DNA of 28,028 nucleotides. Source: Escherichia coli. GTDB lineage: Bacteria > Pseudomonadota > Gammaproteobacteria > Enterobacterales > Enterobacteriaceae. Numbering within the stretch: the stretch's first letter is position 1; each line of letters begins with the position of its first letter. A program made the translations under genes and the position numbers. The stretch lies in NCBI RefSeq assembly GCF_003334335.1, contig NZ_QOWQ01000050.1. One strand, given 5' to 3'. Below the pieces are notes generated by a model that searched no databases, had not been told where the DNA came from, and saw only the letters and a list, made by a program, of their open reading frames with translations. Shown here piece after piece: positions 3,275 to 12,175 of this stretch.

Positions 3275-4192
3275 ATGCAATGTGAATTTAAAGGGGTCAT
3301 ATCAGCATTACCCACTCCTTATGACCAATCCCAGCAAATCGATATGGAGAGTCTTCGAAAACTGATCCGTTTTAATATCGAACAAAATATTAAGGGATTG
3401 TATGTTGGAGGCTCTACTGGAGAAGCATTTCTTCAGAATGTTGCAGAGCGAGAAAAAATTCTTGAAACAGTAGCCGATGAATCAGATGGAAGACTGACAC
3501 TTATAGCGCATGTGGGCGGAATCAGTACGGCAGAAAGCGAGGTACTTGCAAAAGCTGCAAAAAAATACGGATATCATGCTATATCTGCTGTTACTCCATT
3601 TTATTATCCTTTTTCATTTGAAGAGCATTGTATCCATTACAGGAAGATTATTGATTCTGCAGATGGACTTCCTATGGTAGTTTATAATATACCGGCTCTT
3701 AGCGGAGTGCGTTTTTCTTTAGATCAGATAAATGAGCTTGTCACAATACCCAGGGTTTGTGCATTAAAACAGACATCCGGTGATTTATTCCAGATGGAAC
3801 AAATCAAAAGGAATCATCCAGAGCTTGTGTTATATAATGGTTACGATGAAATATTTGCATCAGGGTTAATTGCAGGTGCAGATGGGGGAATCGGTAGTAC
3901 ATATAATATAATGGGGTGGCGTTATCTTGAAATATTTGAAGCAGTCAAAAACAATGATGTGATTAAGGCGAAGGAAATACAGGTAGCCTGTAACCAGGTT
4001 ATTGACACTCTTATTCAGAGTGGTGTCCTGGCAGGTATAAAAACTCTTCTTTACTATATGGGGATTATAAATACTCCTGTATGCAGAAGTCCTTTTTCTC
4101 CGGTAAAGGAAAAGAATCTGGATGTATTATCAAAACTTGCAGAGCGACTGCTCGAAGAACATGACAGAAACAAAAAAATGAAAATAATCTGA
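3275..4192 (+). CDS. nanA: N-acetylneuraminate lyase, NanA paralogue (DapA/DHDPS family)
   Basis: 305-aa ORF with long colinear matches to E. coli NanA as recalled ([91 protein letters not shown]). RBS aaggtga 6 nt upstream. AT-rich codon usage. Confidence 0.9.
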
Positions 4193-4225
4193 ATAATTGC
4201 AAGATTGTTATATAGGTGAAAATGA

Positions 4226-5101
4226 ATGATAACACTGGCTGTTGATATAGGAGGAACGAAAATTTCAGCGGCGTTGATATCTGATGACGGTTCATTTTTG
4301 CTGAAAAAACAGATATCAACACCTCATGAAAGATGTCCTGACGAAATGACAGGGGCTTTACGTCTACTGGTTTCTGAAATGAAGGGAACAGCGGAGCGAT
4401 TTGCAGTAGCATCAACAGGGATTATTAATAATGGAGTATTGACAGCTCTGAATCCAGACAATCTTGGAGGGCTGAAAGAGTATCCTCTGAAAAATATAAT
4501 GGAAGATATAACTGGTTTAAATGGAAGTGTGATAAATGATGCCCAGGCAGCCGCATGGGCAGAATATACAGTTTTGCCAAAAGAAATTTGTGATATGGTT
4601 TTTATAACCGTTTCTACGGGGGTTGGAGGGGGAATTGTAGTTAACAGAAAATTATTAACAGGTGTTTCTGGATTAGCCGGACATGTTGGGCATATATTGT
4701 CCGGAGTAACGGATACAGAATGTGGATGTGGTCGTCGGGGATGCGTTGAAGCGGTTTCATCTGGTCGGGCCATCATGGGGGCAGCAAAAAATAAACTTGC
4801 AGGATATAGCACCAAATATATTTTTGAATTAGCGAGACAGGGATATAAGGAAGCAGAATTTTTGACAGAGCGTTCTGCCAGTACTATTGCTGAATTAATA
4901 GTAAGTTTAAAATTACTGCTTGATTGTCAGGTTGTTGTTGTCGGAGGAAGTGTTGGACTTGCTGATGGGTATGTTCAGAAAGTGTCGAAACATCTTTCCA
5001 TATATTCTGAAATTTGTAATGTAATGCTGTTTCCGGCATATTTCAGAAGTGACTCTGGTCTTATTGGTGCAACTCTTTGGGACCGGGATTGTATTACTTA
5101 A
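4226..5101 (+). CDS. nanK: ROK-family N-acetylmannosamine kinase, NanK-like
   Basis: 291-aa ORF; N-terminal LAVDIGGTK and motifs INDAQAAAWAE, MVFITVSTGVGGG, GHVGH, CGCGRRGCVEA match the ROK/NanK pattern. Sits directly downstream of the nanA paralogue. Confidence 0.8.
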   Translation: MITLAVDIGGTKISAALISDDGSFLLKKQISTPHERCPDEMTGALRLLVSEMKGTAERFAVASTGIINNGVLTALNPDNLGGLKEYPLKNIMEDITGLNGSVINDAQAAAWAEYTVLPKEICDMVFITVSTGVGGGIVVNRKLLTGVSGLAGHVGHILSGVTDTECGCGRRGCVEAVSSGRAIMGAAKNKLAGYSTKYIFELARQGYKEAEFLTERSASTIAELIVSLKLLLDCQVVVVGGSVGLADGYVQKVSKHLSIYSEICNVMLFPAYFRSDSGLIGATLWDRDCIT

Positions 5102-5149
5102 AGTAATACTCCAGTGTATTATAAATCCGCTATTATTGTGAGGTTTAAT

Positions 5150-10319: not shown

Positions 10320-10354
10320 TATTTATGGTGACTACCTGGTGAAGCGTCGAGTAA

Positions 10355-11089
10355 CTATGATGCTTCAATTCGTTTATAAAGGTGATTATACATTAGCTGT
10401 TCAGCTTTATCACAATCATGCTCTTTTATGGCCGTAAGTATTTCAATATGCTGCTGATGGGTTTTTTTGTTATTTTCATATGTCATTTTATTCTTTTCCA
10501 GAGGTTTGGCCATTATCAGCCATTCAGAAAATGCTGAGTGTATTGTTTTTAATACTTTATTGTCAGGTATATCAGCAAGTATACTATGAAATTCAATATC
10601 ATATTGAGCATACACTTCGGGGGTTCTCAGTGAGTTATGATGGATACTGAGCACCTTCTCAAGCCTGTGAATATCCTCAGGCGTTGCATTTTTTGCTGCA
10701 TATCTTACAAGGTTGGTTTCAAAAAAGATGCGTAGTCTTTCAAAATCCTTGATGCCATCAGCTGTAGATAAAAAATCTTTAACAATGCCTGATAACCCAT
10801 TAATGATGGTTTCTGGTGATGGACGGCAGACACTGGCTTTTTCTCCCTTGTTATACCGGATTAGCCCTTTATGTCTGAGAGATGATAAAGCCTCTCTGAC
10901 AGATGGTCTTCCAACGCCAAAGAATGCCATAAGTTCACGTTCAGAAGGCAGGTATTCACCTTCCCTTATCTCCTCCTGGCGGATCATTCTTTCAAGCTCT
11001 TCGGCAACGATTTCTGAAAGTTTTTTTGTAACAATGGGCTTTCTGGTCGTTGTTAGCCCGGGTAACACGGTTTTTTTGTTGTCGGACAT
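10355..11089 (-). CDS. nanR: GntR/FadR-family transcriptional regulator, NanR-like
   Basis: 244-aa ORF. N-terminal wHTH region nearly identical in pattern to E. coli NanR as recalled (KKLSE.V.EELE.MIR..E..EGE.LPSERELMAFF.VGRPSVREAL..L..KGL), followed by an FCD-type domain (LSG..KDFLS...GI..FE.LR.FFE..LVRYAA). Divergent from the nanS-like gene. Confidence 0.8.
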   Translation of the reverse strand: MSDNKKTVLPGLTTTRKPIVTKKLSEIVAEELERMIRQEEIREGEYLPSERELMAFFGVGRPSVREALSSLRHKGLIRYNKGEKASVCRPSPETIINGLSGIVKDFLSTADGIKDFERLRIFFETNLVRYAAKNATPEDIHRLEKVLSIHHNSLRTPEVYAQYDIEFHSILADIPDNKVLKTIHSAFSEWLIMAKPLEKNKMTYENNKKTHQQHIEILTAIKEHDCDKAEQLMYNHLYKRIEAS

Positions 11090-11185
11090 ATATTGATTTA
11101 TATGGATTAGAGCAAATGAGTTTTTAATTTAACACTTTCTTTTAATAATGAAAATATTTAATTAAATCTATTATGTAAAGGGGGA

Positions 11186-12175
11186 ATGATGTATCATCAT
11201 GATTTTAATGAAAAAATAGGTTTCTGGTATGTGATAGCCCTCGCAGGACAGTCTAATGGTATGGCCTACGGTGAAGGTATTCCCCTGCCAGATACACTCG
11301 ACAAACCCGAGTCCCGTGTAAAACAACTGGCTCGTCGAAAAACAATCACACCAGGAGGAAAAGAGTGTAAATTCAATGAGATTATTCCGGCAGATCACTG
11401 CCTGCATGATGTTCAGGATATGAGTGGATATCACCATCCGGCTGCTGATTTGCATAAAGGGGAATATGGTTGTGTCGGACAGGGATTGCATATAGCTAAA
11501 AAGTTACTGCCATACATACCTGAGCAAGCAGGGATATTACTGGTTCCTTGTTGCAGAGGAGGTGCCGCCTTTACTGTTGGAGCTGAAGGTATGTATGTAC
11601 CTGATACAGGGGCAACAGCTGATGCAATGCGGTGGGGCACCGGAACAGCACTCTATGAGGACTTAGTAGCCCGGGTTAAGGTAGCTCTGGAATATAACAG
11701 AAAGAATAAACTGCTATCTGTCTGCTGGATGCAGGGGGAGTTTGATCTTATGTCACCAGATTATGAAAAGCATCCTGACTTGTTTTATCAGATGGTAACT
11801 TCTTTCAGGTCTGAGTTATCTGAATACTCATCTCAGTGTGTTGGTAATTCGTCAGAAAGAGTTCCATGGTTGTGTGGTGATACAACCTGGTACTGGAAGG
11901 AATCTTATCAAAAAGAATATGATTTTATATATGGACATTACAGACAACGGACTGATGATGAAATACATTTTCTCAGCTTTCAGGATAGTAACCGACATGA
12001 ATTAACTAATGAGCCAGAAGAAGATGCCGATGATTTATCTGTCGGGTATCTGGGGTCATCATGGAGGACAGAATTAAGCTGGACAACGTCACAGAGAAGT
12101 ACACATTTTAATTCAATGGCCAGAAGGGGAGTTATTGCTGAATGTTATGCGCAAAAAATAAGAAATTATTTGTAG
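11186..12175 (+). CDS. nanS: SGNH/SASA-family sialate O-acetylesterase, NanS (YjhS)-like
   Basis: 329-aa ORF. GQSN nucleophile motif (ALAGQSNGMAYGEG.PLPD) and long colinear blocks matching E. coli NanS as recalled (HDVQDM.GYHHP, YG.VGQ.LHIA.KLLP.IP..AGIL.VPCCRGG.AFT, CWMQGEFDLM, CGDTTWYWKE). RBS aggggga. Confidence 0.8.
   Translation: MMYHHDFNEKIGFWYVIALAGQSNGMAYGEGIPLPDTLDKPESRVKQLARRKTITPGGKECKFNEIIPADHCLHDVQDMSGYHHPAADLHKGEYGCVGQGLHIAKKLLPYIPEQAGILLVPCCRGGAAFTVGAEGMYVPDTGATADAMRWGTGTALYEDLVARVKVALEYNRKNKLLSVCWMQGEFDLMSPDYEKHPDLFYQMVTSFRSELSEYSSQCVGNSSERVPWLCGDTTWYWKESYQKEYDFIYGHYRQRTDDEIHFLSFQDSNRHELTNEPEEDADDLSVGYLGSSWRTELSWTTSQRSTHFNSMARRGVIAECYAQKIRNYL

Follow-up and report, generated by a model that had tools for sequence, protein, structure and literature searches.

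The nine-gene block at positions 3275-12175 of a 28,028-nucleotide stretch of Escherichia coli DNA (contig NZ_QOWQ01000050.1 of assembly GCF_003334335.1; the whole stretch is called the window from here on) is, in our reading, the chromosomal nan-9 cluster, a horizontally acquired accessory module for the uptake and catabolism of host sialic acid that stands alongside the core nanATEK and nanCMS loci. We give this reading a probability of about 0.8. An annotation made earlier from the letters of the window, here called the original prediction, described the block as an accessory sialic-acid island and left open whether it had been characterised before. It has: by genome-wide association (GWAS) among 1198 isolates, Tiwari et al. 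(BMC Biology 2023; PMC10088187) found nine contiguous human-host-associated genes and named them nan-9, and the block is hence not new. What our analysis adds to that paper is modest, namely the architecture of the promoter, the conservation of the esterase motifs and three sister versions of the module.

Nine uninterrupted open reading frames (ORFs) fill the block, placed and oriented as predicted, and the predicted families hold: five of the proteins score above curated cut-offs of NCBIfam, and Pfam places the other four. Eight lie on the plus strand. The first three encode an N-acetylneuraminate lyase (nanA, 3275-4192; NF003164, 449 bits against a cut-off of 281, and TIGR00683, 435 against 382), an N-acetylmannosamine (ManNAc) kinase of the ROK family (nanK, 4226-5101; NF003461, 420 bits against 283) and a sialate:H+ symporter of the major facilitator superfamily (nanT, 5150-6622, longest ORF from the GTG at 5114; NF003024, 829 bits against 604). 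They are followed by an acetyl-esterase-like alpha/beta-hydrolase (est1, 6626-7456; Pfam Peptidase_S9, BD-FAE and Abhydrolase_3), a nanC-like outer-membrane porin of the KdgM family (7502-8212, longest ORF from 7472; Pfam KdgM, 2e-30), a nanM-like sialic acid mutarotase with a Kelch beta-propeller (8225-9334, longest ORF from 8216; NF010730, 499 bits against 416) and a second acetyl-esterase-like alpha/beta-hydrolase (est2, 9384-10319; Pfam BD-FAE at 2e-20, Abhydrolase_3 and Peptidase_S9). The annotated starts of nanT, nanC and nanM thus lie 9-36 bases inside the longest ORFs. On the minus strand, nanR (10355-11089; NF003011, 273 bits against 260) encodes a GntR/FCD regulator and is convergent with est2 and divergent from nanS (11186-12175, plus strand), a homologue of the SGNH/SASA sialate O-acetylesterases (Pfam SASA; PDB 3pt5, which is NanS, at 9e-125). 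NanK keeps the GHxGH...CxCGxxGC motif; because it passes NF003461 but fails the equivalog NF047821 (385 bits, below the cut-off of 450), its sequence places it at the level of the NanK subfamily of ROK kinases, where functional equivalence is not assured. Searches of the window by tblastn (E <= 1e-5) with the K-12 NanE and NanQ proteins gave no match. The assignments therefore bear out the description of a single block that merges functions of the nanATK and nanCMS types, omits nanE and adds two alpha/beta-hydrolase esterases, so that three esterases of two unrelated folds are present (BD-FAE/Abhydrolase_3 twice, SASA once).

The correspondence with the published cluster is close, as far as it can be judged from the published description. 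Tiwari et al. describe nan-9 as nanAKTCMRS with two axeA1-like acetyl-esterase genes set between the nan genes, in the order nanA, nanK, nanT, axeA1-like, nanC, nanM, axeA1-like, nanR, nanS; they state a similarity of 45-64% between seven of its proteins and those of the sialoregulon or NanS-p proteins, and they report it as chromosomal, in 7% of the study isolates and 12% of 17,994 RefSeq genomes, with its carriers concentrated in the sequence types ST131, ST73 and ST69 (PMC10088187). The window shares the nine genes, their order, the opposite strand of nanR, the chromosomal location, an upstream insertion sequence (IS) and the absence of nanE; similarity to the core proteins, prevalence and lineages are comparable as well, and we found no difference. 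Against other carrier genomes the window cluster matches at 99.7-100%. The extra short nanS of CFT073 had been noticed before, as Vimr 2013 lists two short nanS copies for that strain, and Kakkanat 2017 lists three further NanS-like genes of EC958, one of which, EC958_3294, may be the nan-9 nanS copy. A search of the literature collection available to us found no later papers on nan-9.

Growth phenotypes of deletion mutants have been published as well. Deletion of nan-9 from an ST131 strain delays the start of growth on N-acetylneuraminic acid (Neu5Ac) by ~3 h and leads to slower growth and a lower density on N-glycolylneuraminic acid (Neu5Gc), so that the growth tests of a deletion mutant proposed with the original prediction have already been carried out on these two sugars (PMC10088187). 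A nanRATEK deletion mutant does not grow on Neu5Ac at all, and nan-9 is no substitute for the lost genes, for which the authors give the missing nanE as the probable reason (PMC10088187).

Could the block be no more than the usual core nan locus, or a copy that arose from that locus by recent duplication in the same genome? Automatic annotation gives the same gene names, and the K-12 sialoregulon (nanATEK-yhcH/nanQ with nanR, and nanCMS) indeed has homologues of NanA, NanK, NanT, NanR, NanC, NanM and NanS. Their identity to the block's proteins is just 44-66%, however: 66% for NanA (296 residues), 53% for NanK, 66% for NanT, 61% for the sialic-acid channel NanC, 44% for NanM, 52% for NanR and 56% over 316 residues for NanS. 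Where K-12 splits these functions over two loci, nan-9 holds them in one block, with nanE and nanQ absent and the two alpha/beta-hydrolase esterases extra, and its gene order and flanks are unlike those of the core locus. Its guanine-plus-cytosine (GC) content is 0.39, compared with 0.54 for K-12 nanATEK and 0.45 for nanCMS. Database searches with NanT return module copies at no less than 88% identity, including one from Proteus faecis at 88%, and then drop sharply, with the core NanT proteins of Escherichia, Salmonella, Klebsiella, Enterobacter, Buttiauxella and Rahnella all at 67% or less; NanT of the module stands in a clade apart, and the nan-9 protein is equally far from its core counterpart in E. 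coli and from the counterparts in Rahnella, Buttiauxella and Klebsiella. This drop identifies the cluster, by sequence, as a xenologue and neither the core locus nor a recent duplicate, which also settles the choice between paralogy and xenology that the original prediction had left to phylogeny. Furthermore, the cluster occurs in only a minority of genomes (see below), and strain IMT12185 carries it in addition to the core locus (PMC10088187). On the identities, the missing nanE and nanQ and the divergence of NanT we reject the core-locus explanation, to which we give next to no weight. The short form of nan-9 NanS and its position in an island also distinguish it from the prophage NanS-p paralogues, which have extra domains and a prophage setting; with its SASA domain, the GQSN serine and the catalytic histidine of the S-x-H-F motif aligned with NanS (YjhS), the 9-O-acetyl-N-acetylneuraminate esterase of PDB 3pt5, it is a predicted esterase.

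Base composition tells the same story. GC content over 3275-12175 is 0.395, against 0.50-0.59 in the shiF/iuc genes and 0.52-0.55 on the IS66 side, and this foreign composition, together with the 44-66% identity to K-12 proteins, upholds the horizontal acquisition that had been proposed. The left edge of the low-GC block is marked by an IS66-family element with tnpC, tnpB and tnpA and a degraded transposase remnant (198-3158, minus strand; NF033517, 438 bits for the ORF at 198-1601), of which the element itself spans 198-2614 and the remnant ends near 3158. The annotation of this flank agrees in the near-identical faecal strain G1/2 and in Nissle 1917. In the published isolates IS682 lies upstream of nan-9 in 63 of 86 and IS2 downstream in 23 (PMC10088187), and that IS682 is, in our tentative reading, the IS66-family element of the window. 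The right edge falls within 12176-12234, since homology ends at ~12234 in most carrier genomes and the sequence beyond it is also found in genomes that lack the cluster. Downstream in the window are shiF (12333-13526, minus strand) and then iucABCD-iutA, which reach to 21611, a layout shared with Nissle 1917 and with G1/2, the latter being 100% identical to the window over 3000-12400 and 99.4% over the remainder.

Requiring at least 80% of the block (queried as 3000-12400), 689 of 5426 complete E. coli genomes carry the cluster, nearly all on chromosomes, among them Nissle 1917, clone D and the ST131-type MNCRE44. Taken with the literature, this puts the share of E. coli genomes that have the cluster at about 12-13%, the carriers being mainly human lineages of extraintestinal pathogenic E. 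coli (ExPEC). The original prediction had set the block against flanking aerobactin genes. The aerobactin genes do flank it here, but the adjacency is untypical: the junction nanS-shiF-iucA is found in just 108 of the 5426 genomes, as against 687-689 with the cluster. In MNCRE44 an IS3-family element stands at ~12234 and iha follows directly, with shiF-iuc-iutA missing from this position. The rarity of this junction, the usual end of homology at ~12234 and the different layout of MNCRE44 make nan-9 a separable module within an IS-rich ExPEC island.

Several observations on the surroundings and on database records may be added here. Two plasmid records, CP088636 and CP088753, were considered as cases of plasmid carriage of nan-9; both are short fragments with one end within the cluster and were not counted. 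Public metagenome-assembled genomes under the names 'Bacillota bacterium' and 'Collinsella sp.' also include contigs with nan-9 genes (nine proteins at 99.6-100% identity in contig L014, Est2 at 99% in L015), most likely mis-binned E. coli DNA. Between iutA and iha the window has a second block of foreign composition, an AT-rich stretch at 22000-25000 (GC 0.35-0.40) with only short ORFs, none matching NCBIfam, and with pseudogenes annotated in related genomes; it includes a full-length match to the Rfam family Esr41, a small RNA known from enterohaemorrhagic E. coli (23007-23080, minus strand; 108.6 bits, gathering score 102). The iha gene itself (25074-27164, plus strand; NF010012, 1618 bits) encodes an intact TonB-dependent receptor of 696 residues; in MNCRE44 the same gene carries the annotation siderophore receptor/adhesin Iha, and in the otherwise near-identical G1/2 its counterpart is annotated as frameshifted.

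The DNA upstream of nanA is built like the nanA promoter of K-12. A putative CRP-like site, TTGATAATCTTCACA, lies at 3176-3190 (plus strand), and its (G/T)TGA-N6-TCACA form is kept in all four versions of the module that we describe below, as GTGA-N6-TCACA in both plasmid versions. It is followed at 3229-3243 (plus strand) by a candidate NanR-type operator, GGTGTActaGGTATC, in which GGTRTA occurs twice with 9 bp between the repeats' positions. Fifteen alignment columns here, TGGTGTACTAGGTAT (3228-3242), are invariant across the four versions while the other intergenic DNA has diverged, and the gap between the CRP-like site and the operator is exactly 38 bp in every version, identical to the spacing between the CRP site and the (GGTATA)3 operator at K-12 nanA. 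The difference from K-12 lies in the number of repeats, two instead of three. A motif of the GGTRTAC type occurs once in the window, upstream of nanA; the canonical triple repeat (GGTATA)3 occurs nowhere in it, and plain GGTATA is at chance level (11 observed, 10.3 expected). A generic promoter scan over 3000-12400 gave no difference between the sequence and its shuffles (31 predicted promoters against 29.8). The arrangement points to transcription of nan-9 nanA that would be catabolite-activated and repressed by a regulator of the NanR type, with cross-talk from the core NanR possible.

A second candidate signal lies between nanM and est2, where a perfect 10-bp hairpin, CAGGTGACTG...CAGTCACCTG, with a T-rich tail resembles a terminator (9343-9373, plus strand). 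It folds at -20 kcal/mol (z = -3.4), and none of 200 shuffles folds as well. The hairpin falls on the boundary between two sub-modules, which follow each other in the opposite order in the plasmid versions. In both of these an operator-like motif (GGTATACTAAGCA...) stands just upstream of est2 (L005, ~9965-9985 on the minus strand; L008, 9962-9978), in L005 inside a long palindrome; the est2 of the window has no operator-like motif upstream and is preceded by the nanM hairpin instead.

Searches of 5.8 billion proteins turned up four lineages of the module in total. The homologues drop from 100% identity straight to 58% or less for Est2 and 47% or less for Est1, and the few proteins in that range sit in clusters of this type. 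The first version is that of the window, on the E. coli chromosome, with nanA-K-T-est1-nanC-nanM followed by est2, nanR on the opposite strand and nanS, at a GC content of 0.39. The second is carried by E. coli IncFII plasmids, between finO and repA, and begins with est2, nanR (opposite strand) and nanS, followed by nanA-K-T-est1-nanC-nanM; its proteins are 48-90% identical to those of the window (L005:10001-19020; also L006 and L007, E. coli assemblies). Full-length copies occur on 18 plasmids of PLSDB and in 20 of the 5426 complete genomes, from hosts that include many mouse, rodent and pig isolates and some human ones, a pattern that is only a lead because the mouse isolates probably come from one study. 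The third version has the same order as the second and lies on another type of E. coli plasmid, with Rep3 and ParAB genes, in an O54:H45 isolate (L008:10001-19058; L009); it is 64-92% identical to the IncFII version, has no full-length copy in PLSDB, and for its Est1 one source also names Citrobacter farmeri. The fourth is chromosomal in Proteus faecis (TJ1636, L016:4606-12753; GC 0.33), with the order of the window version but without nanK and with EamA and ShlB-type genes after it; a second copy (L004) is 99% identical. This last version suggests that the module circulates among low-GC Enterobacterales. Neither nanE nor nanQ is present in any of the four. A search of the available literature collection for the plasmid-borne versions gave nothing relevant, and the nan-9 paper reports neither these nor the Proteus version, nor the promoter and operator or the variable link to aerobactin (PMC10088187).

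The genes of the module have diverged unevenly between versions, from ~90% identity for NanT through 78-87% for NanC and 72-85% for NanR to 53-67% for Est2 and 46-64% for Est1. We considered recent recombination as the cause of the gap between NanT at ~90% and the esterases at ~50% and ruled it out, as synonymous sites are saturated in all genes including nanT (proportion of synonymous differences 0.61-0.80). This saturation throughout points to constraint as the source of the unevenness. With ratios of non-synonymous to synonymous substitution (dN/dS) of 0.13-0.29, below 0.3 throughout, it also implies that the versions are old and that all their genes, both esterases included, are under purifying selection.

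Est1 and Est2 themselves are 37% identical to each other and form two small clades confined to the nan module. The best named models for both are the pectin acetylesterase PaeX (NF041902; 168 bits for Est1 and 260 for Est2, against a cut-off of 550) and the acetylxylan esterase AxeA1 (NF042968; 136 and 157 against 700), and both proteins fall far below the cut-offs. Among solved structures their best relatives are 6a6o, 7dwc and 3hxk, at 24-32% identity, with 6a6o the best sequence match for Est1 (1.3e-32). The AlphaFold model of Est2 (mean confidence, pLDDT, 92) has a carbohydrate acetyl-esterase fold, and its best structural matches are 6a6o, an acetyl ester-xyloside hydrolase of Caldicellulosiruptor, and 7dwc, BTAxe1 of B. 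thetaiotaomicron. A search of the available literature collection for papers on these three PDB entries gave nothing relevant. The two proteins agree with PaeX, AxeA1, 6a6o and BTAxe1 in their fold, in the GxSxG nucleophile elbow, in the PGG oxyanion motif and in where the Asp and His lie; their genomic setting is one of nan genes and not of pectin or xylan genes. The motifs PGG, GFSAGGH, DD and HGF, which contain the Ser, Asp and His, do not vary when all module copies and outgroups are aligned. The nearest homologues from outside the module are 43-47% identical and unlinked to nan genes (for Est2, for example, in Kluyvera intermedia). Both esterases look functional and appear to belong to the sialic-acid module; the best available evidence for this is that both have been kept under purifying selection in four old versions while their relatives elsewhere are unlinked to nan genes. 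Two records of altered Est2 may be mentioned alongside. In Nissle 1917 (CP007799; L001:18385-19323) est2 is annotated as frameshifted, with three 1-bp insertions within 116 bp that span the region of the catalytic serine and after which the frame is restored, a pattern that reflects either real inactivation or an assembly error; and a truncated Est2 of 207 residues forms a protein cluster of 225 members (P0002).

The identity of these nearest relatives raises the question of whether the cluster serves another acidic sugar, such as acetylated oligogalacturonates or pectin fragments, or a further nonulosonic acid (Kdn, or the bacterial legionaminic or pseudaminic acids, for example). Apart from the pectin and xylan esterases among the best models and the xylan and xyloside acetyl esterases among the structural neighbours, the membership of the porin in KdgM, the family of oligogalacturonate porins, would fit such a role. 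Yet NanA, NanT, NanM and NanR all score above the cut-offs of curated sialic-acid families, the porin shares 61% identity with NanC, a channel for sialic acid, NanS shares 56% with a structurally solved 9-O-acetyl-Neu5Ac esterase, the promoter is built like that of nanA, and deletion of the cluster alters growth on Neu5Ac and Neu5Gc (PMC10088187). We consider a different substrate very improbable.

One may also ask whether the module does more than raise dosage. It could provide extra NanA, NanK, NanT, NanC and NanM capacity for Neu5Ac and Neu5Gc, with the esterases as passengers or active on unrelated esters. This fits the only phenotypes measured, the ~3 h lag on unmodified Neu5Ac and the slower growth on Neu5Gc (PMC10088187), as well as the scores of Est1 and Est2 below every equivalog cut-off and the absence of a sialate esterase of this fold among the structural matches of Est2. 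Against it stand the facts that four versions at synonymous saturation have all kept the two esterases, with the catalytic motifs intact and dN/dS below 0.3, that their genes are interleaved with nan genes to which the closest relatives outside the module are unlinked, and that est2 has an operator-like motif of its own in the two plasmid versions. We regard redundancy as unlikely. Going beyond a host sialic-acid module, we speculate that nan-9 is a member of a small, old family of mobile cassettes for modified sialic acids, with the esterases representing a new class of sialate O-acyl esterase whose divergence would tune each version to the way sialic acids are modified in a particular host; this bolder view is a tentative one, to which we would give a minor but real chance. 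Tiwari et al. themselves propose that the two esterases of nan-9 are new sialyl esterases (PMC10088187), so that the esterase hypothesis of the original prediction is already in print.

As a host sialic-acid module, nan-9 might work as follows. The run nanA-nanK-nanT-est1-nanC-nanM would be transcribed from the K-12-nanA-like promoter with its CRP site and two-repeat GGTRTA operator, to which the cluster's own NanR, and possibly the core NanR too, would bind. NanC in the outer membrane and NanM as a periplasmic mutarotase, the only cluster proteins with a signal-peptide-like N-terminus, would deliver sialic acid to the NanT importer. Est1, Est2 and NanS would strip the O-acyl groups that block the lyase, NanA would cleave the sugar to pyruvate and ManNAc, and NanK would phosphorylate the latter, so that ManNAc-6-phosphate could be passed to the core NanE. 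The compartment in which the esterases would act is uncertain. Est1, Est2 and NanS have no signal-peptide-like N-terminus in any version and are for that reason predicted to be cytoplasmic; K-12 NanS likewise has none, and it has nevertheless been modelled as acting before transport.

Several points weigh against this account. In Vimr's model K-12 NanS is periplasmic, at odds with a simple assignment of the leaderless esterases to the cytoplasm, and a review in the Journal of Biological Chemistry infers, in a related way, that NanT is unable to take up 9-O-acetylated Neu5Ac (Neu5,9Ac2). The roles given to Est1, Est2 and nan-9 NanS are predictions from sequence and structure. Est1 and Est2 fall far short of the score that any named esterase family requires, and the enzymes of solved structure nearest to them have acetylated xylan or xylosides as substrates and not sialic acid. 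The published phenotypes are silent on the esterases, because neither Neu5Ac nor Neu5Gc carries O-acetyl groups. The predicted operator has two repeats instead of three. Finally, the association with the human host could derive in part from linkage to an ExPEC island with IS66 elements, iha and sometimes iuc.

The significance of nan-9 is already established in the literature: it is the locus with the strongest association to human hosts in the published E. coli GWAS and is common in pandemic ExPEC lineages, and understanding it bears on how ExPEC clones colonise the human gut. For the biochemistry of the module, above all which groups are taken off by Est1, Est2 and the additional NanS and in which compartment, the conserved promoter offers an operator for binding tests, and the three sister versions are natural esterase variants in which specificity can be compared. 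If the esterases do prove to be a new class of sialate O-acyl esterase tuned to the host, they would give a biochemical basis for the host association of E. coli.

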